Assembly (NCBI GenBank): GCA_964648765.1
Contig: CAZYLF010000001.1
Coordinates: forward strand, 79,042-143,041
Direction of reading: 5' to 3'
From: an uncultured Candidatus Saccharibacteria bacterium
GTDB taxonomy: Bacteria; Patescibacteriota; Minisyncoccia; Phycocordibacterales; JACOZG01
DNA length: 64,000 bases
Shown here: positions 8,998 through 39,425 of the stretch, in pieces
Layout of the letters: each line of letters opens with the position of its first letter
Position numbering within the stretch: position 1 is the first letter of the stretch
Position numbers and translations under genes: made by a program
The notes under the pieces: model-generated
Told to the model about the DNA's origin: nothing
The model's database searches: none
The model's input: only the letters and a program-made list of their open reading frames with translations

Positions 8998-9434
8998 TGA
9001 AACTTTAAAACGTCACCGACAGAGATATTTTGACGGGTGGTGTAACCAGCGTTTACTTCAAGTACATAAGACACAGGCGCGGGCGCCATGAAGATTTTAG
9101 GATAAGTTTCTGGCCCCACACTCTTTTCAATCCCTAACACTTTATAATTTTCATCAAGCCAAATAATGTCGAGCGCGAAGTTCATGTCCTTCATCCAGAA
9201 GCCGGTAAGTTCTGGCGGAGAAAAGATGAAAAGCATTCCTTCATCTTTACCTAAACTCTCTCTGCCACTTAAACCTAGATTTTGTTCTGCTTGCGTTCTT
9301 ACTTCTTCAATTTTTAAATTTAAAATTTTTTCGCTTACGTTGATAACTTTCACCTCACTTTTTTTATAAAGAAAAAACAAAGAGAAAATAATTACCACGA
9401 CCAATATAATAATTAAATATTTTCTGCGAGACAT
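8994..9434 (-). CDS. DUF192 family protein (COG1430)
   Basis: Signal/TM, then LFIFSPPELTGFWMKDMNFALDIIWLDENYKVLGIE, typical of DUF192. Track start is TTG; ATG at 9434. Confidence 0.7.
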   Translation of the reverse strand: MSRRKYLIIILVVVIIFSLFFLYKKSEVKVINVSEKILNLKIEEVRTQAEQNLGLSGRESLGKDEGMLFIFSPPELTGFWMKDMNFALDIIWLDENYKVLGIEKSVGPETYPKIFMAPAPVSYVLEVNAGYTTRQNISVGDVLKFH

Positions 9435-10159: not shown

Positions 10160-10162
10160 AAA

Positions 10163-12100: not shown

Positions 12101-12385
12101 TAACTATTTATAACATTTTTATACTACTTGCCGAAATAATTTGCCAAAAAACTTATCCCCATGTGTAGTTTGTAACAGTTCGCGAGAAGGGTGTTTTTTT
12201 GCTATAGTAACCCTTATCCAGATTTGACTGATTTGCTGTAATGTCACCGCCTCGCCGACTCGCTATACAATAGGCTTATTTTATCCAAAACCTCTAAAAT
12301 AGTCATATTTACCAAGCTTTTTTACAAAAAGCCTATTTTTGTTTTACTTATTACGACTATTATTTTTAGTCCAATCTTAATCGTT

Positions 12386-13291: not shown

Positions 13292-13325
13292 ATAAGATCT
13301 AGATAATACCTTAAGCAAAAAAATA

Positions 13326-13347
13326 CCCCGCAAGGGGCTATTTTTTT
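13326..13347. terminator. short GC hairpin with flanking A and T runs between convergent genes
   Basis: ccccgcaagggg followed by ttttttt; an A-run precedes on the plus strand. Confidence 0.35.
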
Positions 13348-14888
13348 GGCCTGTATTGAAGTGCCTCGAGGAGATGTTCTTCTTTAATATCGGGTGCAGA
13401 GGCGAGGTCGGCGATGGTGCGGGCAAGTTTGATGATGCGGTGATAGGCGCGCGCGGAGAGTTCAAGTTGTTTGGCAGATGAATTTAAAAGTTTTACACAC
13501 GAGTCAGAAAGTGGGGCCAACTTCTCAATTTCTTTGGCGCTGATTTGGCTATTTAACTTTTCGCTCACGTTTAATTTTTGCGAGCGCGCTTTCTGCCTTT
13601 CGCGCGCGGCCATTACTCGCTCTTTAATTTTCAGTGATGTCTCACCTCCTCCACCTTTTTGTGAAAGTTTTTCATATTCCACTACGGGCACGTCGAGCCA
13701 CAGGTCGATGCGGTCGATGATGGGGCCAGAGATTTTACGTTCATATTTCATTAATGCTCCAGCCGAGCACACACATTCTTTTCCTCGCACGCCTTTGTGT
13801 CCGCAGGGGCAAGGATTCATGGTAGCGATTAGAATGAAGCTTGCCGGGAAGGTCATAGACCCCCGCGCTCTCGCGATCTGGATCACGCGGTCCTCAAGTG
13901 GTTGGCGCAGAGATTCAATTACCCTGCGATCAAATTCTGGGAATTCATCGAGGAATAAAACGCCGTGATGGGCTAAAGTAATCTCGCCCGGTTTGGGCCA
14001 AGCACCACCACCCACGAGTGAGATGTAGGACGCGGTGTGATGTGGCGCGCGCAGTGGGGGCCGAGTTACGAGCAAGTTACCAAGCACGCCAGCGGCGGAG
14101 TGGATGCCCGTGGCCTCCATCATTTGATTAAAATTTAAGTTGGGGAGAATACTAGTGAAGGCTTTAGCGAGCATTGATTTACCCGTGCCTGGCGGGCCCG
14201 ACATCGCTAAGTTGTGACCACCAGCCGCGGCAATCTCAAGTCCGCGCTTGGCGGAGAATTGCCCCTTCACATCACTCATATCAAATAAGTGATCCAGAAT
14301 AATTTCTGACTCATCCACCTCTGTCGGCGGTTCAGGATTGAGGATCACAATCACCCTTTCTTCTGGCTCCTCTTTTGGTGATAAATGATTGGTGAGTTCG
14401 GCGAGATTTTTAATTCCAAAGACTTTTAAATTTTTTATTAATGCTGCTTCTTTAGCATTTTCTTTCGGTAAATAAAGTTCGATGAAGCCGGCTTTGGCTA
14501 ACTTCTCGGCGATCATTAGCGCGCCTTTAATCCCCCGCACTTCACCGTTGAGCGCAAGCTCTCCGAGAAAGGCTACCTTTTTTGGTTCAAATTTAATTTC
14601 TTTAGCGGCCAGCAGAAAGCCCACCGCGATTGCAAGATCAAAAACTGGCCCCTCCTTCTTTACATCCGCTGGGGCTAAACTCACAATCACTTTTTTGTTC
14701 CCCTTCTGTGGAGATTTAAATCCCGAATTTTTTATAGCGGCACTAATGCGATCTTCAGCTTCTTGAATTGCTTTGTCGGGCAAACCCACAATCGAGAACG
14801 AGTGGAGACCTTTTGAAATATCCACTTCCACACTTACCAGATCAACTTTAAGTCCCACCACTTGAGCGCTATGAACTTTTGCGAGCAT
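13338..14888 (-). CDS. comM: YifB/ComM family Mg-chelatase-like AAA ATPase
   Basis: Lon-like N-domain (LAKVHSAQVVGLKVDLVSVEVD), Walker A GPPGTGKSMLA, MCM-like C-terminus. Confidence 0.9.
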   Translation of the reverse strand: MLAKVHSAQVVGLKVDLVSVEVDISKGLHSFSIVGLPDKAIQEAEDRISAAIKNSGFKSPQKGNKKVIVSLAPADVKKEGPVFDLAIAVGFLLAAKEIKFEPKKVAFLGELALNGEVRGIKGALMIAEKLAKAGFIELYLPKENAKEAALIKNLKVFGIKNLAELTNHLSPKEEPEERVIVILNPEPPTEVDESEIILDHLFDMSDVKGQFSAKRGLEIAAAGGHNLAMSGPPGTGKSMLAKAFTSILPNLNFNQMMEATGIHSAAGVLGNLLVTRPPLRAPHHTASYISLVGGGAWPKPGEITLAHHGVLFLDEFPEFDRRVIESLRQPLEDRVIQIARARGSMTFPASFILIATMNPCPCGHKGVRGKECVCSAGALMKYERKISGPIIDRIDLWLDVPVVEYEKLSQKGGGGETSLKIKERVMAARERQKARSQKLNVSEKLNSQISAKEIEKLAPLSDSCVKLLNSSAKQLELSARAYHRIIKLARTIADLASAPDIKEEHLLEALQYRPKK

Positions 14889-14905
14889 TGCTCAATTATA
14901 GCAAA

Positions 14906-14937
14906 ATAAAAAACCCGCAAAGTTTTTAACTTGCGGG
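14906..14937 (-). terminator. putative intrinsic terminator (minus strand)
   Basis: Minus strand reads cccgcaagttaaaaacttgcggg followed by ttttttatttt. Confidence 0.45.
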
Positions 14938-14947
14938 CGTATAGGCA

Positions 14948-15139
14948 TTAACGACGCTGAAGCTTTACCAGTTGTTCAATCCTCGATGAATAAATTTCTC
15001 CTTTTGGGGCCCAAAGCAGTCTCGCTAATTCCTCGTGTTGTCGCCAGATATTAGTCCCTTGTTTACATTCTCCCACAACTATTTTGAAGATAGAAATCGG
15101 GTTGAGGAAAAACAAAATTTTTCTTATGTAGTGCATCAT
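14948..15139 (-). CDS. small hypothetical ORF (63 aa), questionable
   Basis: Lies between the dksA-like gene and a minus-strand terminator. No motif. May be 3' UTR. Confidence 0.2.
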   Translation of the reverse strand: MMHYIRKILFFLNPISIFKIVVGECKQGTNIWRQHEELARLLWAPKGEIYSSRIEQLVKLQRR

Positions 15140-15196
15140 CTACCTCCTTTAAAAAGGTTTGTTTGAAGAACAACTAACTACTCACAACCTACCACT

Positions 15197-15556
15197 TTAC
15201 AGATGCGCTTTGCAAGTGAGAGCTGCAGGGTTGGCGTCGAGACGTTCCTCCTCAATTGATTGTCCGCAAACATTGCAAATTCCGTAAGTCCCCTCACTCA
15301 TTCTGGCTAAAGCCGATTTTACTTCATGCAAACGGCTTTCAAGTGGCAAAGTTTCCGCCTCGCGATCATCGAGTTCTTCCAAACGTTCGGCTACATCCTC
15401 ACGGAATTCAATTTCTGATAGATCGTCAGATTTGGCTTGCCAGTTTTCTGGATTTTTTGGATCTTTGGTAGCGATACCGCTTAACTCCTCTTCGAGCACT
15501 GCTCGCTCATCCTCGAGTTTGGCTTTTAATTCAGCTTTTTTAGCATCATTTAACAT
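15197..15556 (-). CDS. DksA/TraR family C4-type zinc-finger protein
   Basis: Coiled-coil N-terminus. C-terminal CNVCGQSIEEERLDANPAALTCKAH zinc finger. Confidence 0.75.
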   Translation of the reverse strand: MLNDAKKAELKAKLEDERAVLEEELSGIATKDPKNPENWQAKSDDLSEIEFREDVAERLEELDDREAETLPLESRLHEVKSALARMSEGTYGICNVCGQSIEEERLDANPAALTCKAHL

Positions 15557-25992: not shown

Positions 25993-26364
25993 TTATTCTC
26001 CTCCTAAAATGTCGGAAAAGCATCTTGCCAAGTTTGCTTCTTCACTAAAGCCATGAGATTTGGCCAGTTGGCAGAGTTCGTTAAATGTGACCTGCAATTG
26101 GTCGTCGCCACCCTTTTCCATCCTCGTATCTAAATTTTTCTTAACTTCATTTAGTCGATTCAGGATGGTAGGGGCGAGCTCTTTTTTCTCCGGCCCACTC
26201 TTTGGGTATTGAACACCAAAAAGTAATGAAAATCTATCTTGCTCTTTGGTCAGTTTCCCCTGTTCATTCCAAATGAGGGCGGGGATAACTAAGCAGATGA
26301 TAGCCAATCCTGATGCGGTGTAAAACAAGCGATCCTCCCACCACACCCTCTTGTGTGTTTGCAT
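25993..26364 (-). CDS. N-terminally membrane-anchored hypothetical protein
   Basis: ATG with AAAGGAA SD. TM segment LFYTASGLAIICLVIPALIW. Confidence 0.45.
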   Translation of the reverse strand: MQTHKRVWWEDRLFYTASGLAIICLVIPALIWNEQGKLTKEQDRFSLLFGVQYPKSGPEKKELAPTILNRLNEVKKNLDTRMEKGGDDQLQVTFNELCQLAKSHGFSEEANLARCFSDILGGE

Positions 26365-26427
26365 TTTCTGTTCCTTTCAAAAAACAATATCTACCTGCTC
26401 CCAAACTAGCATTTTAAAATCATAAAG

Positions 26428-26465
26428 TAAAAAAAGAGCCCCGAACGCACATGTGCGTTCGGGGC
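26428..26465 (-). terminator. intrinsic terminator closing the 7-gene AAA operon (minus strand)
   Basis: Minus strand reads gccccgaacgcacatgtgcgttcggggc followed by tcttttttt. Confidence 0.65.
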
Positions 26466-26487
26466 CTTGCGCGCTACTTTTCAATAA

Positions 26488-27075
26488 CTAGTCAGGGGTT
26501 TTAAATGTGAAGGGTGGGAGAGGGCCAAAACATAATCGCCAGTACGTAATCACAACCAGAATCCCACAATAAATCGTGGCGCTGGCCGGGTAGAACACTT
26601 CTTCAATCGACCAATCTTTACCTCCCAAGGTGGAAAGTAAGTTGGCAAAGAAGTACCCCACAAAGATCAGAATCGGTGTCTCCCAAGGTTTCCGGTAACT
26701 CGCTACGGTTTGGGGTATGCCAGCAATAACCATTGCCAGTGTACTCGCAATCGTCGCGTTCCTCGGCCCAGAGTGATACCAAATCACCAGGCAGACAATC
26801 ACCAAGAAGGTTACAAAGCTCTCAAATCGAGTCCAGTTAAAGTTCCTGGATTTTAAAATGCACAATGCTGTTATGCTACCACCAACCGTGTAGGCTGCTG
26901 CTAGCAAATAATTTCCGTCTTGCAGAAAAATGGTGACGGCAGCAATTGCATCAAGCGCCGACCAAAGTAACCATGTAGCCAAGTTCTGCACCACCTTGCC
27001 GGTCAAGAGTTGGTAGCAAAGTGGAAAGTAGAGTGAAATGGCCAACAGTGTGCTAATCACTACGAGCAGGTTCAT
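26488..27075 (-). CDS. polytopic membrane protein (about 6 TM)
   Basis: 195 aa, hydrophobic throughout. AAAGGAGG plus ATG. Overlaps the upstream gene by 23 nt. Confidence 0.55.
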   Translation of the reverse strand: MNLLVVISTLLAISLYFPLCYQLLTGKVVQNLATWLLWSALDAIAAVTIFLQDGNYLLAAAYTVGGSITALCILKSRNFNWTRFESFVTFLVIVCLVIWYHSGPRNATIASTLAMVIAGIPQTVASYRKPWETPILIFVGYFFANLLSTLGGKDWSIEEVFYPASATIYCGILVVITYWRLCFGPLPPFTFKTPD

Positions 27076-27505
27076 TCACGCCTCCTTTCTTGGGCGAGAG
27101 GTCTCGGCAAAGGGCCGAATCTTTGTTGGCAATACCAGCATTTTTCCGGATCAAGACAGCCATGGAAATGAGGAAATTCTTTTCTATGGTTGTGAGATCG
27201 GTGTATTGCTTGCGGGTGCTTGTCTTTAGTACGCCGCTTTCTCGATAGCCATCTGGGTCGATATGTGAAATATAGTAGTACTCAAATCGGTTGTTTGGCC
27301 AGATTTGTTTGACTTCTAATATTTCACCCATTTTTCCCATAGCGAGGGTGTAAGAAACACTTAGACCGTCTTTGCCAATCCAATCTAAACAAATCCGACC
27401 AATGCGAGGATTATCTTGAGTGGCTTCTTGCTTTCTGATTAATTTCTGCGCGCGTGATAAGGTTTTGCTGACTCTTGGCCCGAAAAAGAAATTCCATAAA
27501 CCCAT
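27053..27505 (-). CDS. hypothetical protein
   Basis: Track start is TTG; AAAGGAGG plus ATG at 27505 (MGLWNFFFGP...). Confidence 0.45.
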   Translation of the reverse strand: MGLWNFFFGPRVSKTLSRAQKLIRKQEATQDNPRIGRICLDWIGKDGLSVSYTLAMGKMGEILEVKQIWPNNRFEYYYISHIDPDGYRESGVLKTSTRKQYTDLTTIEKNFLISMAVLIRKNAGIANKDSALCRDLSPKKGGVNEPARSD

Positions 27506-27658
27506 TATTCGCCTCCTTTTTTTGAAGTTGTTTAAGATCAATCTAACAACCCCTATTATAACCTTTTATAAAATTTTGTCAATGAATAAAAAAGAGCGCT
27601 TCGAAGTTAATCGAAGCGCTCTGTGCTGCACTGCAAACTGCAAAGAACAAATGAGCTT

Positions 27659-29254
27659 TTATCCTCCTTCATCAATTGCTGAAGCTAGCTCTTGCTTCAG
27701 ATTATTGAACCACTCCTTCCGAGGAAGGTTGGTGTTAATCCATACCACCTTTTTGGTTGCCGCATCAGTGATTGTTACTTCAGGATTTGAACCTGCAACG
27801 AAGTCACTACGCGTTTTATCTGTATAAGTGACGATGGTGGTTAACCACATAAAACGCACCACCCCGTCAATTAACTTAATGAAAGGTCGGTGTTCGGCTG
27901 GGTAATTTTGATCCCAGTCGTTAAAAGCCCGACTTCCCATTACGCTGGCACCAATAGTGCTTACCCCCGGCAGCGCCTCGTTGCGCTTGGCGTGAGAGTA
28001 AGTAAAGATTGGACCAATACCATCCGCAGGGTAGAAGACAGAGGCGTTATGCCCCTGATTCGCCTTTGTGTATGGTTCAAGTGAGAAATAATGATACAAC
28101 TTATTTTCACCCCCGCCTTCTTTCAAAAAACGAAAGTAGATGGTGAAGGGCTGTTCGTTATAATCACCTTCTAAGTCAGGGATTCGCACATCGCCTTGGT
28201 GTGAACCAGGGAAGGGTGCAAAAAATCCTGACTGAAAACGGAAACTCTCAGCTGCGTACCGGCTCACATCGTATGGTATGAGTGGCTGGCCGCGCAGGTA
28301 GGAGTGGTTGGCCACCTCTTCTGGTGGAATCCACTCCCCATCACCAATCATCATGAGTTTGAGCCAATGCAACAGCCCGCCCTCACTTTGACGTATCACT
28401 TGCACACCGCCGAATTCCGGTCGAGGGAAAAGTATTCCCTTCCAGCGTACTAGTGACACAACTTCTACCCACTCACCCTTATCATCCTTGATGTATTTAA
28501 CATCACTCGGACTGTATGACAGGAACCGAAACGGATTTAAGAATGAGCGGATAGTGCTAATTTTTACGTTCTTCCCAAGGAGTAGATTCTCACCAACGGC
28601 AAATGATACCGGTGTGCGATTCTTACTTGAGAAGTCTGGTGATGCCGCTTCGCCGGGGAGACTGAGCACTCCTTTCACGTTCTCTATGAGTCGTGGAAAG
28701 AAGTACGAAGGTTCTATCCCCATTGTAAACCGATAGCTATCACCAACCCTAACGTAATAGGGTTCTGAAACTTGATGCACATCCTGCATCCCACCCCTCA
28801 GGGATTGAACCCTAATGGAGTGTAGAGGCTGGATTCGATCATGCTCTGTCACCGGTAGCTCCTCTAGCTCCCGGAGGTCAAGTGTTTTGTAACGCCAGTA
28901 CAAGGTTAAGTACTTGTGAGGTGAAGCGCCAATGTAGCGATAATTAACCGCCATCAGCACCAACACTCCCAAAATTATTAACCACTTTTTCCGACTGATT
29001 CTGTGGTGGTAGTGATAGATCAAAGCAATGGAAGTAACCGCAACGATCACTTCAAAGCTATAGATCCTTACCGCTAGAAACAGTGGCTGTACCCACGCTC
29101 TGGCAAGCAGAGCAAGGAAGAGTGCAACTCCCAATAAAAGGAGGAAGCGTCCTCGATGCTCTTGCCAAAGATTTTTTGCCCAAAGTAGGAAGTTTCTGAA
29201 AATCCAGTACAACCTGCCATGAGCAACCTTTATTTCTGCTTCTGAAGAGGTCAC
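27659..29254 (-). CDS. membrane protein with 3 N-terminal TM helices and about 400-aa extracytoplasmic domain
   Basis: GTG start with GAGGAGG SD, abutting the upstream stop. No recognised family. Confidence 0.5.
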   Translation of the reverse strand: MTSSEAEIKVAHGRLYWIFRNFLLWAKNLWQEHRGRFLLLLGVALFLALLARAWVQPLFLAVRIYSFEVIVAVTSIALIYHYHHRISRKKWLIILGVLVLMAVNYRYIGASPHKYLTLYWRYKTLDLRELEELPVTEHDRIQPLHSIRVQSLRGGMQDVHQVSEPYYVRVGDSYRFTMGIEPSYFFPRLIENVKGVLSLPGEAASPDFSSKNRTPVSFAVGENLLLGKNVKISTIRSFLNPFRFLSYSPSDVKYIKDDKGEWVEVVSLVRWKGILFPRPEFGGVQVIRQSEGGLLHWLKLMMIGDGEWIPPEEVANHSYLRGQPLIPYDVSRYAAESFRFQSGFFAPFPGSHQGDVRIPDLEGDYNEQPFTIYFRFLKEGGGENKLYHYFSLEPYTKANQGHNASVFYPADGIGPIFTYSHAKRNEALPGVSTIGASVMGSRAFNDWDQNYPAEHRPFIKLIDGVVRFMWLTTIVTYTDKTRSDFVAGSNPEVTITDAATKKVVWINTNLPRKEWFNNLKQELASAIDEGG

Positions 29255-29896
29255 TTAGGCCTCCTCTCGTTTGTTCCTTGTGCCAAGAAAGTCCGCCATC
29301 AAGTCTTCCGGCGAGGCGTTCTCGGTGACCACTGGTGGAGCCGGCGCTTCTTGGGGATTTTCTTTTTGAACATTACTACTCGTGCCTTCCACGCGGAGTG
29401 AATGCTCATACTCAAATATCCAAGTGATAAAGCGGTTCCACTGGTTCTTAACCCACGAGCTGCTGCGCTCGTATTGCCTTTGACCCGACTTTACGAGGTC
29501 GTAATCGCCAGCATTGAAACGCTTCTCATAATCTCCAATGACCTCAAACACATTTACTCGTCTCCCCCACAAACGGAGGAAGATTGGCCCAGTGAGAAAC
29601 CCGAAGGCAATCACCAGGATTCCAAAGAGCCAAATGAAGAAGCCGTTAAGCATCCCCACCTCAGAGAAGATCGAAATAAGAAGAATGAATTTTGTCGAGA
29701 GGATAGTGGCCGTCATAAAACGAAAACTCACCGGCCTCTGACAAATAAACCCTTTCTCACTCGTCTTCGCTAGACCCTCAGTGCTGATTCCGCACCACCA
29801 GTTGTACCACTTTACGCCCCTCTTTCGATCCAGAGCGTAAAGGGTCCAAGCCACGCCAAGATATATAATCATCCAGACTATCAATGCACCGTTCAT
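29255..29896 (-). CDS. polytopic membrane protein
   Basis: ATG at 29896 overlaps the upstream TGA (ATGA coupling). Four or five hydrophobic helices. Confidence 0.5.
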   Translation of the reverse strand: MNGALIVWMIIYLGVAWTLYALDRKRGVKWYNWWCGISTEGLAKTSEKGFICQRPVSFRFMTATILSTKFILLISIFSEVGMLNGFFIWLFGILVIAFGFLTGPIFLRLWGRRVNVFEVIGDYEKRFNAGDYDLVKSGQRQYERSSSWVKNQWNRFITWIFEYEHSLRVEGTSSNVQKENPQEAPAPPVVTENASPEDLMADFLGTRNKREEA

Positions 29897-31149
29897 ACAT
29901 GTCTCCTTGGCTTTAAGCCACCGGTCAGGAGCTTCCTGACCGTCCATGTTTTTTGCGCGTCTGGCCACACGCCATAACTTGCAAAAAACGTTTCCTTATC
30001 GTACGCGTGCCAGTTGGTCACCAACGTTGGTGCCACTCGGCAGATGAGCTTCCACACTACCTCAGCCTGAGTTACTGCGAGTGAGCTTTTGGGTCGCCCT
30101 AGTAACCAACGCATCCGTAGCGATAGTCGCTCGAGGTTGATCTCCTCACCGTTCGCCAACTTCTTCTCCAGTCTTTCCAAGGTGGAGTATTCTGGGGGGA
30201 GATGATGGCGAAATTCCATGACCAAACCTTTTTGCTGAGCTCCGTTTAATTTGCTGAAGTCAATCTCGGCATTTTGGCCACTGTATAAAGTAGCAACCAA
30301 AATTGCTTCACGCATTTCTTCAAGAACCCACAGGTTTTGTCGATACCAATCCAGTGGAATTTCCACCAAACCAAGATCGACCATTTGGGCAAAAAGTGTT
30401 TTGTCGTTTCGACTTAACACCTTGCCGCCCGCCACTTTTCGCTTTTTTTCAGCCTCGTTTGTTACTAGGAGCATATTTTGGCTTCCATGGCGGAAGACAA
30501 ATACTCCACCGAACGCCACCGTGTAATAAGCGGCAAGCTCGGTAAACTCTCGAGACACTTCAAGCTTAGGGTTGAAGCGGAGATCACCAAATTTTTTCCC
30601 ACTCTCAAGCAATTGTTGTCTGAGATTAGGGTTTGACCAATCGCCGGCTTCTCCCACAAAGCGTTTCACTAGTGCTCGTTGAGCGCTAGCTTCCTCGATC
30701 ATCCCAAGTGTGTCCGAGAGATTTACTCTCACCGACTTAACCGTGGCTAAGTCGGCAAGCTTCTTCAGTTCAGATACACCTGGATCAATTTGGATAATCA
30801 TCCCAGCGTCACGAGTGACGCGGGTGATTGCTCCCTCACTGCCAGTTAGGACGTTGGCCAGCACCGCCCGCTCAAATGAATAAGTCGGGTTGAAAACTGG
30901 TTTTCCGCCTTGCTCCGGAGTGAGCACGATGGCAAATTGCACTGCGCCATCGTGTGAGAGGTAGTTGGGGTCCTCTTTTTCTTCTGCAATTTGAGGGCTC
31001 CAACCGCGCCCGTCAATCTGAAATCCGGTGAGATTTGTTTTGGTTAACCCAAGTTCGGCGAGGCATTTATTATACCTCTCCACCAAAACTTGGTTGTTAA
31101 CGTCTACCAAGCCTCCACCGTAAAATCCATGTTCTCGAAGACTATCCAT
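29893..31149 (-). CDS. hypothetical soluble protein (418 aa)
   Basis: ATG overlaps the AAA gene stop (TAATG). No recognised motif. Confidence 0.5.
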   Translation of the reverse strand: MDSLREHGFYGGGLVDVNNQVLVERYNKCLAELGLTKTNLTGFQIDGRGWSPQIAEEKEDPNYLSHDGAVQFAIVLTPEQGGKPVFNPTYSFERAVLANVLTGSEGAITRVTRDAGMIIQIDPGVSELKKLADLATVKSVRVNLSDTLGMIEEASAQRALVKRFVGEAGDWSNPNLRQQLLESGKKFGDLRFNPKLEVSREFTELAAYYTVAFGGVFVFRHGSQNMLLVTNEAEKKRKVAGGKVLSRNDKTLFAQMVDLGLVEIPLDWYRQNLWVLEEMREAILVATLYSGQNAEIDFSKLNGAQQKGLVMEFRHHLPPEYSTLERLEKKLANGEEINLERLSLRMRWLLGRPKSSLAVTQAEVVWKLICRVAPTLVTNWHAYDKETFFASYGVWPDAQKTWTVRKLLTGGLKPRRHV

Positions 31150-33140
31150 TAGGCTTCTCCTTTCGCCGTAAGTCTCCTCCTTACTTCTTCTTGAACACCA
31201 AAGGCTTCAATTTGTGCATCAATCGTGCGTTCACGACCGACGTTGGCAATTTCTGCCATGGCATTTAAGTAGCGAACCGTCTCTCGCAAACGAATGTCAG
31301 CGAAAGATAGCCCCTTCATATTGCCCCGCATTAAGTCCTTCAGCATCTCCACCTTAACTTGGTAGTCTTGATGAAAAAATACTTCCGGCTGGTTAAACCA
31401 GTTTTCCGGTAGGTCGAAGTCCATAACACGAGTTTGCACTGCTTGTTGGATGTTACGCACATCCCGTGAAGTGAAGAACGGATACAACTGGTGAATCTCC
31501 GTGAAAAGAGTGGCAAAAAAGCCATGGCTGTTTAAGTCATATCTTTCTCGCATCTTACGGTAAATCACCCGAATCCGTTCATCATTTGGTTCTCCTAGTT
31601 CACCTTCGCGCACCAGAAGATTTTTTACTTCCTTCTGATCATCCAAGTAATTGTAACCTGGGATGTCTGTCATGTTGACGAACTTGGGATCAACTTTTTG
31701 GAGCTTGCGCCACCATAGGTGATCCTGATCGCCAAAGTCATGCACTGTTGTCGCTCCGTTAATTGGGAAGCGATCTTGAATTCGCGAGAGCACTGCCTTG
31801 TCGATTTGCTCGGGCAAGTTGGTGAAAATAATAATCACCGTGTTCCCGCGGATCAATGCGTAAGCGCCTTCAGTATACCGAAGGAAGACGCCGATCACTT
31901 CTCTCACACCGGCACTGACGCCGTTCCGGGTTCGCTCTTCAAGATTATTTTCCCCATCGTCGATGGGAGCAAAGATAACTTTGTCTGGATCTTGAAGACG
32001 CTTCATCCAGTCGAGCATCCGTTCGGCTGACCCACCTTGAAATGTGGAAACCACATTGTCGGGTAGAGGCCAGAAGAGAAATGGGATTTCAATCTTTTCA
32101 CACAGGTCATGAAGTAACGTGGCCGTAGCCGAGATCTGCATCGTTTTACCTGTGCCAGGCTTCCCATAGCCCATTTGCACCATGGGGAAGCCGCCGAGAT
32201 CAAGAAAGGGGTTTCGTTGTTGTTTGAGATCATAACAAGCCAACCGGCTAGCAAGTCGCCTCGCTGCATGCTTGGCCGCTTGATTACCCACAATGTCACC
32301 GAAACCTACTCGATTGAACTCTACACTAACGCCCGCCGTGTGCTTTTTTACCTCGAAACCTTCTACAGTGAAGTCAGTTTCAGCTAACTGATAACTGACA
32401 TTTGTAAAAGCATCGACATACTTAAGCGAGGGCAAGCGCAACTTGATCTCGTTCATCATGGCTTCGCTAAAGCGAATACCCATGCGCACCATAGCAAGGT
32501 CACTTTTGACCAAGCCAGTGCGTTCCGGATCAAGATAAGCCGCCAAGTAAAAGGTGAAGCACTTAAGTGCTCCCGGGATGGTTTGGAGGTCTACCTCAGG
32601 GATCCCATGGAATTCCATGTTGATCATTGAGACTTTGTCCTCTTTGTAACCACTGAGTTTCCAATTGATATAAGCCGCGGCGCTAAAGACTGCAACAGCA
32701 CTTGCGGTGATACCTTTGGCTTGGAGCTCATCCTTTTGGTCTTGGGTTAACTGTCCGGCACCTGCCAATTTGCGTAGTTCTGTTGATCCAACCGCTTTGA
32801 GATACTGCTCGGCTAAGTAAAAGCCGACACTCAAACCAGTTTGGATTGTGATCAACACAAAGTTGGCGTCTTCACTCAATAAACTTTGCCCACCACTTAA
32901 GGTTTGGGCAGTTTTCATGAGTGAAAGCTTTTCGATTTTTGGTGAGCCACTCGCCATTGCGGGGCGCCAAGCGGGAGCATTGCCATTTGGGCCTGCACCT
33001 TTTTGCGCCGCGTTATGTTGAGTATCCCACTCCGTTTTTGGAGCCCACTCCACCGAGGTTAGAAGTCCAAAGGCAATTTGCTTTTGGGTAACTAAATCCT
33101 TGGGATGAATGGGGAAGTGAGAACCGCTAGGAGACTGCAT
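31149..33140 (-). CDS. classical-clade AAA ATPase with large unrecognised N-terminal domain
   Basis: FGDIVGNQAAKHAARRL ... GYGKPGTGKT (Walker A), VIFAPIDDGE (Walker B-like, DD not DE), IIIFTNLPEQIDKAVLSRIQDRF (sensor 1 and Arg fingers). GGAGG plus ATG at 33140. Confidence 0.8.
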   Translation of the reverse strand: MQSPSGSHFPIHPKDLVTQKQIAFGLLTSVEWAPKTEWDTQHNAAQKGAGPNGNAPAWRPAMASGSPKIEKLSLMKTAQTLSGGQSLLSEDANFVLITIQTGLSVGFYLAEQYLKAVGSTELRKLAGAGQLTQDQKDELQAKGITASAVAVFSAAAYINWKLSGYKEDKVSMINMEFHGIPEVDLQTIPGALKCFTFYLAAYLDPERTGLVKSDLAMVRMGIRFSEAMMNEIKLRLPSLKYVDAFTNVSYQLAETDFTVEGFEVKKHTAGVSVEFNRVGFGDIVGNQAAKHAARRLASRLACYDLKQQRNPFLDLGGFPMVQMGYGKPGTGKTMQISATATLLHDLCEKIEIPFLFWPLPDNVVSTFQGGSAERMLDWMKRLQDPDKVIFAPIDDGENNLEERTRNGVSAGVREVIGVFLRYTEGAYALIRGNTVIIIFTNLPEQIDKAVLSRIQDRFPINGATTVHDFGDQDHLWWRKLQKVDPKFVNMTDIPGYNYLDDQKEVKNLLVREGELGEPNDERIRVIYRKMRERYDLNSHGFFATLFTEIHQLYPFFTSRDVRNIQQAVQTRVMDFDLPENWFNQPEVFFHQDYQVKVEMLKDLMRGNMKGLSFADIRLRETVRYLNAMAEIANVGRERTIDAQIEAFGVQEEVRRRLTAKGEA

Positions 33141-34254
33141 AGATTCCTCCTTCCGAGGTGTAAGTGACGTGTTGATAAGTCTTGTAAGACTCACGGAACT
33201 CGTCGTGATGACCAATTTGCTGCAACAAATGATGCGGCAAAATGATCACCGACTGAACCTGGCTGGAGTAGCGGCCAGTGGAAATCTCCATACTGGGGGA
33301 AATGGCAAAAATCTGCTTTACCAATTTCCGGCCGTTGATGAGGTCTAACCAACTCCAAGGCTCTTTTGACTCGCCTTTGGAGTAAATCATCTCTGCATCA
33401 AGTTTTAGTACAAAATCATCCACTTTGCCGAACTCGCTAAGCCATTTACCGATTGGACTTTGATTATCACCCGAGCAAAAGCGCGGACAAATAATTGGTC
33501 CAATCTGTACTCGTTTGATGATCTTAGGGAAAACATGCGGATGTTCATCGTCAATGGAAGTGCCAAGCACCGCCAGAGACGTAGTTCCGCGGTTGCCGTA
33601 CTTACGAACAACCTCGAATATTTCCCCGTAATCATTTTTGAGTTCGAGATGCGTACCATGATAGTCAAACGCCATAATGTACACAAAAGGCACATTGAGG
33701 GTTCGGTCATAACACGCCCAAGAGATAAGACAGCCCAACTTACCACGTGCCTCGCCTACCACGGCAATTTCACCGGGTGAGAAAGGGAGTAACATTGAGT
33801 TCTCATGTAAGCTCTCCAAAAATTGCCGTTTGGCCATTTGTGGTAAGAGCTCAACCGGATCGCGCCCGCGGACTAAAAGTTCTTCAAGCGCCATCTCCTC
33901 GTAAACCCGCCGGCTTGGCAAGTCTACGAGTCGCTCCTCCTTAAGATCAAAATCACTTTCTAACTCGGCAACGCCGAGGTAGTGTGGCAAACCGGAATCG
34001 TTAAGATCCAGTACCAAGTGATCCGATTGATTGAAGAGATGTTTCCACCGGAGCACGCCGACCGTATAAAGCAGTCGGTCTAAATATCCGGCTACGATTT
34101 TTGCCTCCACATCGCCACCGGTAGCCAACTTCTGGTACCAAGTGCGAAGGAATGCAAAAACGCGATTTAAGTGAGCGAAGTATTTGGCATAATCCTCACT
34201 GCTAGTGAGTCGGCAACAATCGCTGACTCCCCGTAACTCGTCGAGTGTCTGCAT
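33127..34254 (-). CDS. hypothetical protein (His-rich motifs; possible but unproven metallo-hydrolase)
   Basis: AAGGAG plus ATG at 34254. Motifs AFDYHG, DDEHPH, ILPHH, GHHDEF. No firm family assignment. Confidence 0.45.
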   Translation of the reverse strand: MQTLDELRGVSDCCRLTSSEDYAKYFAHLNRVFAFLRTWYQKLATGGDVEAKIVAGYLDRLLYTVGVLRWKHLFNQSDHLVLDLNDSGLPHYLGVAELESDFDLKEERLVDLPSRRVYEEMALEELLVRGRDPVELLPQMAKRQFLESLHENSMLLPFSPGEIAVVGEARGKLGCLISWACYDRTLNVPFVYIMAFDYHGTHLELKNDYGEIFEVVRKYGNRGTTSLAVLGTSIDDEHPHVFPKIIKRVQIGPIICPRFCSGDNQSPIGKWLSEFGKVDDFVLKLDAEMIYSKGESKEPWSWLDLINGRKLVKQIFAISPSMEISTGRYSSQVQSVIILPHHLLQQIGHHDEFRESYKTYQHVTYTSEGGIYAVS

Positions 34255-34286
34255 CGATATTCTCCTTTTTTGTTTGGGTAGTAAGA

Positions 34287-34321
34287 CAAAAAAAGGGAGG
34301 GGAGCATAACACACCCCTCCC
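34287..34321 (-). terminator. intrinsic terminator between the coiled-coil gene and the AAA operon
   Basis: Minus strand reads gggaggggtgtgttatgctcccctccc followed by ttttttt. It is immediately followed by the SD/ATG of the next gene. Confidence 0.6.
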
Positions 34322-34351
34322 CGTAAGTTTTACTTCCCGCCAACTAGACCG

Positions 34352-35656
34352 CTAGTTGGTGTTTTGGTAGCTGAAGATCGAGCTCGCGCTCGCCTTCACT
34401 CCATAGTGCTTGCTGAAAGCCTCAAAGGCTTTGGCTTCACGCTCACGCATGAGAGCCGCAGCCTCTGCTTGCCCCGCCGCTGCGTTAGCGATACGAGCCA
34501 AACGTTCGGGATGGTCCTCCACCATTTGCTGGCGGACCTCATCAGAGGCGGCTCCAAATCGAGCCATAGCTTCAGCATTACGCGCATCAATTTCTGTCCC
34601 GATTTTGTCGAGACCTCGCGCCACTTGCTGATCAGCCACACCCTTCATACCCTCTAAGCGGCTGGTATAAGTTACCAATCGCTCTTGAGTGTCAGACTTC
34701 AAAACCATCATCCAGGCTCGCTGGTTGTCGCGCAGTTTGCGCTGTGCCAGTTCGTGGATGGCTAGTTCTGCCGCGAAACGTTCTTTGGACTGATACAGAA
34801 CAAAGACGACATTTCGCTGTCCGCGGAGTTCCTCCATCTCGTTTCGGAGTTTGGTGACCTCTGTTTCCTTGGCCACATAGGCCGCGGTTCCATTGGTGAG
34901 CCCCGCCATCTCCATTTCAGCAAGTTTGACCTTGCTTTCTGTGTCCGAGAGAGCTTTGTCCAACATCTCGAGCTTCTTCGCTGCCTCTTCCTTCACTCCC
35001 AACGCTTCGATCAAGCGGTGAGCCACCTTGACTCGTTCGCTTTCAATCGTGACCGAGCGCGCTTCCATAATCTTGAGCGCTCTGAGCACTTGGGTGGTGA
35101 ATGTCTGAAGTGACTTCTCCATGTTTGACGACATCAGACGCTTGCGATACAAACGCGCTGATTCCGCTTTGGCATGCTGGAGGCCTGACTCGCAGGTTGC
35201 GAGATAGTTTTGGGCAGCAGCAATTCGCTTGCTTTTGAACCAAAAACCGCTCTCGGCCTTTGACAGAGCTTCCTTTGCTTTTTGCAAAGCAAACTCAGCT
35301 CTGGTGACCATCCCCCTTTCTTCGGGTGAGGCTTCAGCCAGGCCCGTCCACTCAAAGCCCATTTTGTTCATGAGTTCGCGGAGTCCGAGAACCGCTTGCG
35401 CTAAGTCCCCCTCCTCCTTCTCCATGTCGGCGCGTAGTGCTTCCACGTTCGCCTTCACAGTCTTGACTCTCATTTCACGAGCGTTGGCCTCCTTCACTTT
35501 CATTGCTTCCTCAAGATCAGTCTCCATTTTGTCGAGACGATCCGTGATGTTCACATCTGGAGTTTTGTGCTCCAGATTAGTAAGCAAGCCGAAGGTGTCA
35601 GTCTGAAGCTCCTTTAGCAGATCCTCTGCTGTCCGCGCCTTTACTGCAGTTTCCAT
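34352..35656 (-). CDS. long alpha-helical coiled-coil protein (TelA/PspA-like architecture, unverified)
   Basis: Track start GTG at 35701; AAGGAG plus ATG at 35656. 434 aa, helical and charged. No TM. Confidence 0.5.
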   Translation of the reverse strand: METAVKARTAEDLLKELQTDTFGLLTNLEHKTPDVNITDRLDKMETDLEEAMKVKEANAREMRVKTVKANVEALRADMEKEEGDLAQAVLGLRELMNKMGFEWTGLAEASPEERGMVTRAEFALQKAKEALSKAESGFWFKSKRIAAAQNYLATCESGLQHAKAESARLYRKRLMSSNMEKSLQTFTTQVLRALKIMEARSVTIESERVKVAHRLIEALGVKEEAAKKLEMLDKALSDTESKVKLAEMEMAGLTNGTAAYVAKETEVTKLRNEMEELRGQRNVVFVLYQSKERFAAELAIHELAQRKLRDNQRAWMMVLKSDTQERLVTYTSRLEGMKGVADQQVARGLDKIGTEIDARNAEAMARFGAASDEVRQQMVEDHPERLARIANAAAGQAEAAALMREREAKAFEAFSKHYGVKASASSIFSYQNTN

Positions 35657-36084
35657 ACAGGTTTTCTCCTTTTCTTCCAAAAATCCTATATTTTGACCCA
35701 CCTACAAGGTGGGCCTATTCGATTGTCAAAAAACAATCACTACTGTCTATATACCTAGCACAATCCGTTTGATTTGTCAACCCATGCTCCATGTTGTATT
35801 TTTATCAATATATCTCGAAAATAATTAAAAAATTTTTGTAAAAATTTTTTCTAATAAATAAATAATAATGACCTGTGGATAACTTACTTGTCCTTTACAA
35901 TGTCTTTTATTAAACTATAGGACAGGTACGATTTGATCTTTGAAAAGGCTGACGAATCCGGAGGCCGGCTATGTCCTTTTAAATCATTTTTGTTTGCCCC
36001 ACTACAATGGTAAACAAAAGGCTAGTCTCCCCTGATATCGGGCCATCCAACCCCAAATAGGGTTGATAAATATAAATAATCCGC

Positions 36085-36125
36085 CCAAAAACACTCCACG
36101 TTTCGGGCGGATTTTTTGTTCCTAA
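36085..36125 (-). terminator. intrinsic terminator after cca (hairpin usable on both strands)
   Basis: atccgccc...gggcggat hairpin with T-rich flanks. Confidence 0.55.
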
Positions 36126-36141
36126 AAGTTTCCCGTGTAAC

Positions 36142-37623
36142 CTATTTTACCCAGTGTTTATCGCGGATTTTCTTGATTTCCTCGCTCTCAATCTCCTCTT
36201 TCTTCTCTTTGCCTTTCTCTCCTAATTCTTTTAATTTAATATCTTCTAGTTTGCTTAACTCTTTCGCTTTGTTAGTTAAATATTCCTGATTGTTTAATTC
36301 TGGGTTATCTAAAGTTTCTTCAAGTAATGCGTGCAGAATGTAACCAATCTTCGGACTTGGATTTAAACCTGTTTCACGTATAACATCCTCCCCTTTTATC
36401 TTAAGCATCGCCACGGAAGTTGGCGCTCGCAAAGCCTCATCAATCATTGATTCATACTTCCTTAAGCGGTAAGGACTCTCTTTTGGTCGGCCCATGCCGA
36501 TACGATCGCAGTTGCGCACCTTCATTAAGTCCCAGATCTCCTCTCTACCCACATTCCTAATTATCCTTCTGACTGCCGAAAGGGTAATTTTATCAATATC
36601 AGTGAAGAACATGTGGTTCCTCACCAATTTTGTTACCAATTCCGTCGTTTCACGTGAAAACTTAAGTCGCTTAAGTATATTTTCAGCCATTTTTGCACCA
36701 ACTACGTCGTGACCGTAGAAGGTATAGTCATTCTTCTCCTTACTAAACTCTCTGGTGCGGGGCTTACCAATGTCATGGAACAAAGCGGCAAGTCTCACGT
36801 GAAACGCAAAGTCCTTGTCGGCCGAATGCTGGGCTACTCGCAAGGTATGCTCCCAAACATCATAGATATGGTCACCGTTTTGCTTCATTCCGATCCCCTC
36901 CTCAAGCTCAGGCATAAACTCCTTTAACGCTCCAGCTTTGTGGAGTAAAATGATCCCGATCATTAGGTTTTTTGACATCAAAAGCTTTGAAAATTCGTCA
37001 TTAACCCGCTCAACTGCAATCTTTTTTAGAAGTGGGGAGGTTTTTATCATTGCCTCAAAAGTCTCACTGTTTAACGTGAAACCGAGCTCCGCCGCCAGCC
37101 TTATACCCCTCATAATTCTAAGTGGATCCTCCTCAAATCGGTCCTCCGCTTTACCCACTGCTCTTAAGGTCATGTCTTTTAAATCTTGAGCGCCGCCGTA
37201 TGGGTCAATTATTTGACCTATAAGAGGCGTAAAGGCCATGGCATTGATCGTAAAGTCCCGACGTCCTAGATCATCCTCAATCTTGTCACTAAACGTCACA
37301 GAGTCAGGATGGCGCTTGTCTGAGTACTTAGCCTCTAATCTAAAAGGCGTGATCTCAATATGCTTTTCAGTTTCATCCCCTGCTTGCTCGTCTACCACAG
37401 TAACGGTGCCGTAGGAATTCTCGTAAAATGTTTTAGGAAAGAGTGAAGCAATCTCTTCTGGCTTTGCGTTGGTGGTGATGTCCCAATCTTTTGGCTTCAC
37501 GTGTAACATTAGGTCGCGCACGCAACCACCAACTAAATAGGCCTTAAAATTGGCTTTTTCAAGGGTGTTTAGGGTCTCAGCGACCCCTTTAGGTATTAAA
37601 AATTGTGTTTTTGACTCCCCCAT
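36142..37623 (-). CDS. cca: CCA-adding tRNA nucleotidyltransferase with HD domain and K/E-rich C-terminal tail
   Basis: GGCVRDLMLHVKPKDWDITT head domain. HD motif LAALFHDIGKP. C-terminal about 55 aa is lysine/glutamate-rich. Confidence 0.85.
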   Translation of the reverse strand: MGESKTQFLIPKGVAETLNTLEKANFKAYLVGGCVRDLMLHVKPKDWDITTNAKPEEIASLFPKTFYENSYGTVTVVDEQAGDETEKHIEITPFRLEAKYSDKRHPDSVTFSDKIEDDLGRRDFTINAMAFTPLIGQIIDPYGGAQDLKDMTLRAVGKAEDRFEEDPLRIMRGIRLAAELGFTLNSETFEAMIKTSPLLKKIAVERVNDEFSKLLMSKNLMIGIILLHKAGALKEFMPELEEGIGMKQNGDHIYDVWEHTLRVAQHSADKDFAFHVRLAALFHDIGKPRTREFSKEKNDYTFYGHDVVGAKMAENILKRLKFSRETTELVTKLVRNHMFFTDIDKITLSAVRRIIRNVGREEIWDLMKVRNCDRIGMGRPKESPYRLRKYESMIDEALRAPTSVAMLKIKGEDVIRETGLNPSPKIGYILHALLEETLDNPELNNQEYLTNKAKELSKLEDIKLKELGEKGKEKKEEIESEEIKKIRDKHWVK

Positions 37624-37703
37624 TTAAATTATTCTAGCCTAGATTTTGCCGTGTTGCTAATTATCTGTTATATTAGCGAGGCACCGGACAGATTCGCTCC
37701 CGT

Positions 37704-37775
37704 GGTGAAATGGATATCACAACGGTCTTCGGAACCGTTATTGGGGGTTCGAATCCCTCCGGGAGCACAGCGACG
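37704..37775 (+). tRNA. tRNA-Arg (anticodon TCG)
   Basis: Manually folded: 7-bp acceptor GCTCCCG/CGGGAGC, D-stem GTGA/TCAC, anticodon stem ACGGT/ACCGT, loop CTTCGGA, T-loop TTCGAAT. Confidence 0.8.
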
Positions 37776-37806
37776 AAGGGATTCGAGAATCCCCGAGGTA
37801 GCGAAT

Positions 37807-37877
37807 GCGGATATCGTTTAGTGGTAGGACACGTCCTTGCCAAGGATGAGGTGGGAGTTCGATTCTCCCTATCCGCA
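37807..37877 (+). tRNA. tRNA-Gly (anticodon GCC)
   Basis: Acceptor GCGGATA/TATCCGC, anticodon loop TTGCCAA, T-loop TTCGATT. Confidence 0.8.
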
Positions 37878-38003
37878 CACAATATGTACCTTGTCTCATT
37901 ATTTCCATCAGACAGTCCGTTATAAACCCTTAAAACTGTGGATAACTCTGGGGACAATGGGGATAAAAGACAGTAAAAGTCGTCTTATATGGCTTAAAAT
38001 CGT

Positions 38004-38387
38004 ATGTCCAAGACAGAAAAGCAGCTGACAGGTGATGTTGGGGAAAACCTAGCAGCTATGTTTCTTATGAAACATAATTTCACCATTATTGGCCGTAATT
38101 ACCGTAAAAAGTGGGGTGAGATTGATGTCATTGCTAAGAAGGGGAATGAGATTAGATTTGTGGAAGTGAAGACTGTGATCCGAGATTTTATTAAAGAAGG
38201 GGATTATGAGGCGTCAGATAATGTGCATCCGTGGAAGCTTAAGAGACTTTCACGAGCGATTCAGACATATTTGTTAGAAAATAAAATTAATGAAGATGAA
38301 ATTGATTGGCAGCTTGATGTAATCTCTGTATATTTAAACGGGCGAGGGGAGACTTTAAAAATTGATTGGTTAGAGGATGTGTTTTAA
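38004..38387 (+). CDS. YraN/UPF0102 family endonuclease-like protein
   Basis: GENLAAMFLMKHNFTIIGRNYRKKWGEIDVIAKKGNEIRFVEVKT matches the UPF0102 pattern. Confidence 0.7.
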   Translation: MSKTEKQLTGDVGENLAAMFLMKHNFTIIGRNYRKKWGEIDVIAKKGNEIRFVEVKTVIRDFIKEGDYEASDNVHPWKLKRLSRAIQTYLLENKINEDEIDWQLDVISVYLNGRGETLKIDWLEDVF

Positions 38388-38468
38388 GCTTGACTTTTGT
38401 GTTGTTTCTGCTTTAATGTGAAAAGCGAATTTTGTTGTTTGAAATGGTAAATTTGAAAGGAGAAAATC

Positions 38469-39425
38469 GTGGCCGAAAGTCGGAAAGAACGCCTCAAAGA
38501 TCTAGTTTTGTTGCCATTCTGGGTGCTCTTATTCTTGCTTATTCTAATTATTTATCCATTTTGGCTTTTGTTTACCAGAGTGGTGAACTGGGTGGGATTA
38601 AGCAATTTACGCACAATGAAAGGTGATGTGCAGACTCCGGTGGTTTATTTTCTGAATCAAAACACCAAACGGATGGTGATTCTGGTAGGGGTGGTGCACC
38701 TCGGCGAGAAGTCGTATTACGCGCAAATCCGGGAACTTCTGGCCTCACTCGACGGCTTCACTGTTCTTTATGAATGGATTAAAGCCTTAAGTGATGAGGA
38801 AAAGTCGAAATTAACTGAGAAGTCCGAAAAAATCGTAAAGGAGTTTGAGAGCTATGGTAAATCCTCACGGATGATTTGTGAGATTCTGGGCCTACAGCCG
38901 CAGAAAGAGGGTTTGCCAATTGAAGCAAAGTGGATCAACACTGACGTAAGAGCCTTTGAATTGATCAATTACTTTGTGAATCACAATCTCAATTTCATGA
39001 AAGATATCGGCAAAATTGAGAAACTTCTAGGTGCGGAATCTGACCAAGTGCTTGATAAGTGGCTACTGAATGGGACCTTCAAGCGAATCATTGTTGTTAT
39101 GGTGTTTGCGGGGTTTTATAGTAAACTCACCAGAAAGCGCCGTTTGAAGCATGATTTTTTGATTAACCAGCGGAATGTTGTTGCAGTTGAAGGTATCCGC
39201 GAGCATTTGGCCAAAGGCAATGTGGTGGCAATATGGGGAGCAGGGCATTTGCCGGGGATTGCCAAAATGCTTAAGCAAGATGGCTTCAGTGTGGTGGGCA
39301 AAGAATGGTACACGGCGTATAAAGCAAAAGATTGCTCGTTTTGGGATGTTTTTGCCGATCGTAGTGTGGTGGCGGTGGAGCGTTTGGCGGCAATTTCTGA
39401 TCAGATAACGAGAATAAAAAAGTAA
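38469..39425 (+). CDS. TraB/GumN family protein
   Basis: GTG start with GGAG SD. N-terminal TM. Motifs LVGVVHLGEKS and GAGHLPGIAKMLKQDGFSV are typical of TraB/GumN. Confidence 0.6.
   Translation: MAESRKERLKDLVLLPFWVLLFLLILIIYPFWLLFTRVVNWVGLSNLRTMKGDVQTPVVYFLNQNTKRMVILVGVVHLGEKSYYAQIRELLASLDGFTVLYEWIKALSDEEKSKLTEKSEKIVKEFESYGKSSRMICEILGLQPQKEGLPIEAKWINTDVRAFELINYFVNHNLNFMKDIGKIEKLLGAESDQVLDKWLLNGTFKRIIVVMVFAGFYSKLTRKRRLKHDFLINQRNVVAVEGIREHLAKGNVVAIWGAGHLPGIAKMLKQDGFSVVGKEWYTAYKAKDCSFWDVFADRSVVAVERLAAISDQITRIKK

Follow-up and report, generated by a model that had tools for sequence, protein, structure and literature searches.

A 64,000-nucleotide stretch from an uncultured Candidatus Saccharibacteria bacterium (GenBank assembly GCA_964648765.1, contig CAZYLF010000001.1, positions 79,042 to 143,041 of the forward strand), called the window at its full length in the following, carries a copy of a bacterial gene module that is widespread yet uncharacterised. 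The constant part is a core of four cytoplasmic proteins with a fixed gene order, namely a coiled-coil protein A (~440 amino acids, aa), a soluble protein B (~370 aa), an AAA ATPase C (~655 aa) and a DUF6638 protein D, to which most lineages, including that of the window, add a membrane protein E with three transmembrane (TM) helices and a protein F that combines three TM helices with a large extracytoplasmic domain (exo-domain). We tentatively read the module, with a probability of about 0.4, as a membrane-tethered AAA remodeller that would act on assemblies of the coiled-coil protein A. No characterised system of such composition has been found; the system is new, its motor comes from a known superfamily and one of its parts is a catalogued domain of unknown function (DUF). 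Five of the six module proteins are without a characterised relative, and, to our knowledge, the classical AAA clade (Cdc48, Vps4, katanin, NSF) has few understood bacterial members besides FtsH and the proteasomal ATPases.

An earlier note on this DNA had described a terminator-bounded operon of seven genes between 26428 and 34321, built around the AAA ATPase. The seven minus-strand open reading frames are present, and the notion of an AAA-centred multi-gene module with membrane partners stands, although its extent has had to be redrawn, as the last two genes (G and H) fall out and a gene upstream (A) comes in. Eight minus-strand genes, A to H, are found between 26.4 and 35.7 kb of the window, each preceded by an AGGAG-type ribosome-binding site. 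The conserved unit comprises A to F (27659-35656) or, with its promoter region and terminator, 27593-36094. The features, all on the minus strand, are as follows.

35657-36094, minus strand: AT-rich 5' intergenic region upstream of A, ~440 nucleotides (nt), unusually long, with several A/T runs
34352-35656, minus strand: gene A, coiled-coil protein of 434 aa, ATG at 35656 with an AAGGAG ribosome-binding site
34321-34287, minus strand: hairpin between A and B, 9-bp G+C stem followed by seven T, fold z -3.6
33127-34254, minus strand: gene B, soluble protein of 375 aa
31149-33140, minus strand: gene C, classical-clade AAA ATPase of 663 aa
29893-31149, minus strand: gene D, soluble DUF6638 protein of 418 aa
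29255-29896, minus strand: gene E, membrane protein of 213 aa with 3 TM helices
27659-29254, minus strand: gene F, 531 aa, three N-terminal TM helices and an exo-domain of ~410 aa
27622-27593, minus strand: intrinsic terminator that ends the module, 12-bp stem (7 G-C pairs) followed by five T, fold z -3.7
27582-27555, minus strand: sigma-70 consensus promoter (12/12, TTGACA-16-TATAAT), directly after that terminator
27053-27505, minus strand: gene G, basic protein of 150 aa
26488-27075, minus strand: gene H, 195 aa, 5-6 TM helices
26466-26437, minus strand: terminator after H, 13-bp stem followed by seven T, fold z -5.3

Conservation Across Genomes

The genes of the module had been taken for orphans, whereas the AAA protein C has at least 1700 relatives, the best 120 of which are mostly full-length and share 45-58% identity, N-region included. 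A scan with one genome per species has located relatives in at least 499 species, with a Patescibacteria metagenome-assembled genome (MAG) as the top match (57%). Within the Patescibacteria, the hosts belong to Saccharibacteria, Moraniibacteriota and Paceibacterota. Many others are Bacteroidota (Flavobacteriaceae, Saprospiraceae, Chitinophagales), and further ones have been found in Trueperaceae, Opitutaceae, Verrucomicrobiales, Desulfobacterales (including Desulfonema magnum), Desulfuromonadales and a gammaproteobacterium, while Pelagicoccus and a Bdellovibrionota MAG have been added by exact-protein look-up. Accordingly, at least seven phyla or groups are spanned (Patescibacteria, Bacteroidota, Verrucomicrobiota, Deinococcota, Desulfobacterota, Bdellovibrionota and Gammaproteobacteria).

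The gene neighbourhood has been compared by tblastn of the eight window proteins, together with a profile for E, in the 66 loci with enough flank. Gene A has been observed in all of them (66/66), B and D each in 65/66, F in 63/66 and E, by tblastn plus profile, in 60/66. A-B-C-D are collinear, in the same order and on the same strand, in 65/66 loci and all six genes in 59/66, and G or H occurs in none (0/66). Recurrence of the gene order, put forward earlier as a point to be checked, thus extends across phyla. The sole full-flank locus that breaks the four-gene core is L015 (uncultured bacterium KTt_bin-0975, ~8500-15500), in which C, E and F are accompanied by a weak A-like match directly before C, and tblastn finds neither B nor D.

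The identity of the AAA protein to that of the window amounts to 46-47% in Saccharibacteria, 46% in Moraniibacteriota and 43% in Paceibacterota, and reaches 50% in Trueperaceae and 49% in Opitutaceae. As these identities do not track taxonomy, they suggest that the whole module has been moved by old horizontal transfers. Carriage by phages or plasmids has been rejected, since no family member occurs among 50,697 phage genomes or 2.9 million viral contigs and the apparent plasmid matches are chromosome-sized replicons. Housekeeping genes (CCA-adding enzyme, cytidylate kinase, IspH, thymidine kinase) flank the module in the window, Pelagicoccus and Sinorhizobium, and no cargo-like gene is conserved in its neighbourhood.

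In Flavobacteriaceae (L019-L084), a gene for a NUDIX hydrolase of ~195 aa lies on the same strand between C and D in 36-37 loci (e.g., L073:12670-13257), and other small genes at the module junctions encode 23S-rRNA-IVS-type four-helix proteins (20 loci), RDD family proteins and DUF1963. Owing to these insertions, the Flavobacteriaceae loci are not translationally coupled like that of the window. The module is intact in the minimal-genome Patescibacteria and is likewise present in cultured, tractable bacteria such as Tenacibaculum, Winogradskyella, Gelidibacter, Pelagicoccus, Desulfonema magnum, Sinorhizobium meliloti and Vibrio; therefore, its function is open to direct genetics.

The AAA ATPase C

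Protein C passes the Pfam model PF00004, scoring 41.6 bits (cut-off 21.2) over residues 325-459, and this is its only Pfam match at E<=0.1; the NCBIfam model of CdvC gives 18 bits against a cut-off of 650. A family-specific N-region (~1-270), the AAA domain and a C-terminal extension (~470-663) can be distinguished. In agreement with the earlier note, which had recognised nothing in the first ~320 residues, neither these nor the C-terminal extension have a match in Pfam, NCBIfam or PDB. The closest PDB sequences are those of Cdc48 D1, VAT, FIGL1, Vps4/CdvC, i-AAA, Rpt4/PAN and spastin, all with weak E-values, and the family profile retrieves nothing from the PDB sequences at E<=1e-4.

The nucleotide-binding motifs named before are all invariant in 15 diverse homologues, among which G326, P328, G329, T330, G331 and K332 of the Walker A motif GKPGTGKT, the sensor-1 residues T440 and N441 and the arginines R453 and R457 within VLSRxxxRF do not vary. 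The same holds for D394, D395 and E397 of the Walker B motif, which reads IDDGEN; the hhhhDE pattern with its catalytic glutamate is not found, and an aspartate stands in its place. The change from Glu to Asp is also seen in a distant variant of the family, in which the motif is TIDD(I/V)DQ. The pore-loop, sensor and arginine positions have been placed by sequence alignment; against Cdc48 D1, STFQGGSAE corresponds to the pore loop SKMAGESE, IDDGEN to IDEIDS and TNLPEQIDKAV to TNRPNSIDPAL. The invariant Asp at the position of the catalytic Glu suggests, as far as can be judged from the motif, a slow or gated ATP hydrolysis.

Members of the classical clade (Cdc48/VAT D1, Vps4/CdvC, FIGL1, spastin, Rpt/PAN) are the best and only PDB sequence matches of C, which shares with them a single AAA domain with a GxPGTGK(S/T) Walker A motif, an aromatic pore-loop residue at the Cdc48 position, the sensor-1 Asn, two arginines of the second region of homology and a helical lid with an SRDVRNIQ-type motif. 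It departs from them in the invariant Asp and a two-residue insertion before it (IF-AP-IDDGEN against IFIDEIDS), in an N-region of ~270 aa and a C-terminal extension of ~190 aa that are without detectable relatives, and in the lack of an MIT, CDC48_N, protease or second AAA domain. Within the classical AAA clade, C represents a branch that is both deep and unusual.

The Soluble Partners

The product of gene A is identical to the database protein P0121. Its AlphaFold2 model is all-helical (predicted local distance difference test, pLDDT, 68; predicted template-modelling score, pTM, 0.37), with a confident hairpin of ~70+70 residues at ~180-330. Foldseek returns nothing at E<=1e-3; the weak top matches are ClyA-type toxins, F-BAR domains, chemoreceptors and SMC coiled coils, elongated helical hairpins, some of which form polymers or bind membranes. 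The fold match is non-specific. At the C-terminus, a conserved YGIDPxxxSFFxY motif is encoded (window 34352-34400), and a distant Vibrio homologue has an F..RFG motif at the equivalent place. Membership of A in the PspA family has been considered and rejected, as the A profile aligns to E. coli PspA with an hhalign probability of only 1.2%. None of 16 family members matches Snf7 or PspA_IM30 in Pfam at E<=0.1.

Protein B has been found to be without a Pfam or PDB match for 23 members, and its invariant residues are D83, S87, P90, D235, P243, G252, P253, S292, H341 and Q345. Protein D is a DUF6638 protein (PF20343, 134.3 bits against a cut-off of 27, E 7e-39) over residues 12-403 of 418 and carries an invariant block FxIDGxGWSPxIAxE and a GDLR motif. 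Proteobacterial homologues reach E 7e-79 with this model, and the Vibrio protein bears the name 'DUF6638 family protein' in RefSeq. The family is catalogued without a known function and is not mentioned in the literature that could be searched.

The Membrane Proteins E and F

For E, three TM helices are predicted, instead of the five that had been assigned to it, together with a conserved cytosolic loop and a disordered, acidic and Pro-rich tail. Its C-terminus carries a conserved DPxxxIxx(F/Y)T motif (window 29255-29300). The Flavobacteriaceae E (173 aa) is too diverged for tblastn and matches the E profile with an hhalign probability of 92.6%. The C-terminal peptides of A and E are both short and conserved, and both begin with Asp-Pro.

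In F, the three N-terminal TM helices are followed by a beta-rich domain of ~410 aa that is predicted to be extracytoplasmic and is highly conserved, with many invariant polar residues. The model (pLDDT 93.8, pTM 0.91) has about four helix-plus-sheet modules after the TM helices, and on this basis we are confident in predicting a new fold. PepSY/cystatin-like extracytoplasmic modules (YpeB, YpmB, YycI and PepSY_TM proteins such as FoxB) have served as a comparison for F, and its exo-domain has neither a Pfam nor a clear structural match to PepSY. The family is small and isolated, with 165 representatives among 1.84 billion.

Comparison With Known Systems

For A, B, E and F, nothing above noise has been obtained from Pfam, NCBIfam, PADLOC, PHROGs or the PDB sequences. 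Pfam scans of all members of the families A, B and F yield low-complexity or TM noise only, and the profiles of A, B, C, D and F against the PDB sequences coiled-coil noise or nothing. The 5027 models of PADLOC-DB 2.0 give no meaningful score (best IetA with E 0.004, 14.6 bits, in the AAA core, and Cas8 with E 0.077). None of the eight proteins matches Sigma54_activat, PspB or PspC, and ESX components (FtsK/SpoIIIE-type EccC, WXG100), the Bcs1 N-domain and CbbX are without a Pfam or NCBIfam match at E<=0.1. The earlier statement that the partners match no known AAA machine (FtsK/EccC, protease, secretin) is accordingly borne out by Pfam, NCBIfam and PADLOC, in which Bcs1 and CbbX, named in the note as possible assignments, are not hit either. 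The module is not described in the literature searched for DUF6638, DUF2333, bacterial Vps4-like operons and S. meliloti locus tags, and a comparative-genomics study of the PSP system describes AAA contexts other than this module (PMC11237479).

A Four-Gene Core With an Interchangeable Membrane Partner

In Trueperaceae, Desulfonema and Vibrio, A-B-C-D occur alone, and the genes downstream are unrelated or on the opposite strand. A distant variant, detected by tblastn of PLSDB with 27-28% AAA identity from residue 65 onward, is found in Vibrio vulnificus, V. parahaemolyticus, Sinorhizobium and Shinella, on replicons of the size of a chromosome; the Vibrio copy lies on a 0.9-Mb replicon amid hypothetical genes. 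The neighbours of the variant match the window families with hhalign probabilities of 97.7% for A, 99.8% for B (Vibrio homologue) and 100% for D (Rhizobiaceae homologue). The fifth gene of the Rhizobiaceae loci codes for a DUF2333 protein that has two TM helices at its N-terminus as well as an outside domain (L086:13169-14392, L087:10048-11199). Homology of F to DUF2333 has been rejected, the two proteins being unrelated by comparison. Since an unrelated protein takes the place of F, the membrane-anchored exo-domain partner is recurrent but interchangeable, and the core activity is cytoplasmic, as in several lineages nothing but the four cytoplasmic genes has been retained.

In Pseudomonas fluorescens, duf2333 has been reported beside genes for a NUDIX hydrolase and a muramoyl-alanine amidase (PMC5256989). 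NUDIX genes thus adjoin components of the module in two unrelated contexts, this one and the Flavobacteriaceae insertion. The adjacency may reflect a link to nucleotide sugars or cell-wall precursors, or may be coincidence.

Proposed Mechanism and Alternatives

Classical-clade AAA proteins with an aromatic pore loop, such as Cdc48, Vps4, katanin/spastin and NSF, thread or disassemble protein substrates. By analogy, C would assemble into an ATPase ring and take hold of a protein substrate with its aromatic pore loop. B and D, translationally coupled to C and therefore candidate cofactors, would assist it as such or as adaptors. Because A is always adjacent to C, it is the most plausible client; on the inner side of the membrane, it may build elongated helical assemblies that C would remodel or dismantle, and from the attenuator-like hairpin after its gene one may postulate that A is made in excess of the other module proteins. 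E and F, or DUF2333 in the place of F, would anchor the machine at the membrane or regulate it there, and through the outside domain of F it could be linked to the condition of the envelope. AAA N-domains often recognise conserved C-terminal peptide motifs of the kind seen in A and E, and these motifs could be docking motifs for the same partner.

Several points weigh against a remodeller acting on A. The link between C and its client has been drawn from co-occurrence and from analogy with classical AAA proteins, the model of A is only moderately confident at the pLDDT and pTM given above, and the attenuator hairpin is missing from many loci. The Asp at the catalytic position could mean poor hydrolysis, and C could then be a switch and not a motor. 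An enzymatic role for B or D is possible. Finally, the spread over phyla departs from taxonomy in a way that is also typical of accessory or conflict systems. A more far-reaching form of the proposal, which we consider rather improbable, is an unrecognised machine for membrane remodelling or repair, analogous to ESCRT-III/Vps4 or NSF/SNARE, in which A would polymerise on the cytoplasmic membrane, C, as a dedicated ATPase with two novel cofactors, would recycle it and F, as an envelope sensor of new fold, would control the process; if true, it would supply the 'missing' disassembly ATPase of a bacterial polymer-based membrane system.

The patchy, phylum-crossing distribution also fits an anti-phage or conflict system, in which C would sense or respond to infection and A or the membrane proteins would be the effector. 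The position of the Vibrio copy among hypothetical genes and the small variable genes inserted in Flavobacteriaceae loci (DUF1963, RDD) point the same way, as do weak Foldseek matches of A to the ClyA-type pore formers AhlC, MakA and YaxA and to BAR domains, and faint matches of the AAA domain to IetA (PADLOC, at the E-value above) and IteA (NCBIfam, E 0.05). The latter two are, however, confined to the generic AAA core, and no protein scores meaningfully in PADLOC. A nuclease, protease, TIR, sirtuin or other usual effector domain is lacking, and both the housekeeping flanks and the absence from the phage and viral collections speak against such a role, so that we hold it to be rather unlikely.

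A strict bacterial counterpart of the ESCRT-III/Vps4 or NSF/SNARE machines would require A to be a true polymer of the ESCRT-III fold, recycled through its C-terminal motif. Vps4/CdvC and FIGL1 are indeed among the nearest solved relatives of the AAA domain, and the conserved C-terminal peptide of A recalls the MIT-interacting motifs (MIM) of ESCRT-III proteins. Bacterial ESCRT-III proteins, according to a review (PMC7619361), are without a known Vps4-like partner, which has been counted in favour of this explanation. As in the archaeal CdvB-CdvC pair and in the PspA/Vipp1 systems, a helical-hairpin protein, which may be made in excess and bears a conserved C-terminal peptide, is encoded beside an AAA ATPase and membrane proteins. 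In contrast to these systems, A resembles Snf7, PspA or Vipp1 neither by sequence nor by profile, C has neither MIT nor Vps4_C domain and is not a PspF-type sigma-54 activator, and B and DUF6638 have no counterpart there. No family member scanned matches Snf7, PspA_IM30, MIT or Vps4_C in Pfam at E<=0.1, the PspA comparison fails at the profile level, the top 50 Foldseek matches of A include no ESCRT-III protein, and A is twice as long as one. This explanation is therefore unlikely.

Alternatively, the module would be a machine for ATP-driven export, membrane-protein extraction or envelope assembly, in which E and F do the work in the membrane and C supplies the power. The genes for E and F occur in ~90% of the loci, the large exo-domain of F is highly conserved with its invariant polar residues, and the long disordered cytosolic tail of E could be a handle for a threading ATPase. 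Yet the two proteins add up to no more than six TM helices, the module lacks a channel-forming subunit as well as a secretin, ABC or FtsK-type one, the neighbourhood offers no conserved cargo-like gene, and whole lineages have the four cytoplasmic genes without E and F. As the Rhizobiaceae exchange F for an unrelated protein, E and F appear accessory and not core. Of the membrane-embedded, ATP-driven assembly proposed earlier, the membrane partners remain, while the embedded, export-like part has been weakened by the core-four lineages and is quite unlikely; of the four membrane proteins counted then, two (E and F) belong to the unit.

Whichever of these hypotheses holds, a new AAA-driven cellular process in bacteria is to be expected, and its study would answer how an AAA ATPase works with Asp at the position of the catalytic Glu.

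Transcription Signals and Flanking Genes

From B through F, the junctions overlap or abut, with a strong ribosome-binding site at each. All five junctions described before are exact on a check of the sequence, namely a 14-nt overlap of B and C, TAATG at C/D, ATGA at D/E, the abutting TAA-GTG at E/F and a 23-nt overlap of G and H. The G+C content is modestly higher in the module (49.0%) than in the window (44.7%); in the note, it had appeared higher than that of the T4SS region.

The region 35657-36094 separates the start codon of A from the terminator (36111-36095) of the gene for the CCA-adding enzyme. Within it, a promoter-like site (9/12) is present at 35749-35722 and a TTGACA near 35780. 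This part of the window is the probable promoter region of the module and may hold regulatory elements for it. A scan of 26000-38500 with Rfam has returned two transfer RNAs (tRNAs) only and no match in this region.

Both terminators named at first, 34321-34287 and 26466-26437, are real; the former is nevertheless not convincing as a unit boundary. Only ~33 nt separate it from the start codon of B, and no promoter-like site lies in between, for which reason it is probably a partial terminator (attenuator). A comparable hairpin with a T-run follows gene A in some other loci, though not in all (L005, L016, L019-L021, L061, L080). The third terminator, 27622-27593, is as strong as these two and, with the promoter 27582-27555, parts F from G. 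G and H (26437-27582) are a separate two-gene transcription unit with its own promoter and terminator; they match nothing in Pfam, NCBIfam, PADLOC or PHROGs, and all tblastn matches to them come from contigs of this organism (L001, L002). The unit has been set at A to F because of the terminator and promoter after F, the absence of G and H from the compared loci and the constant presence of A. That the seven genes of 26428-34321 form one operon is consequently most improbable in spite of their common strand, tight packing and terminator-like hairpins at both ends, given the internal terminator and 12/12 promoter (27622-27555), the absence of G and H from all 66 other loci and the position of the ever-present A outside that range.

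Upstream of the module, the CCA-adding-enzyme gene is located at 36142-37623, and beyond it two tRNA genes lie on the plus strand at 37696-37767 and 37807-37877 (RF00005, 66 and 65 bits).

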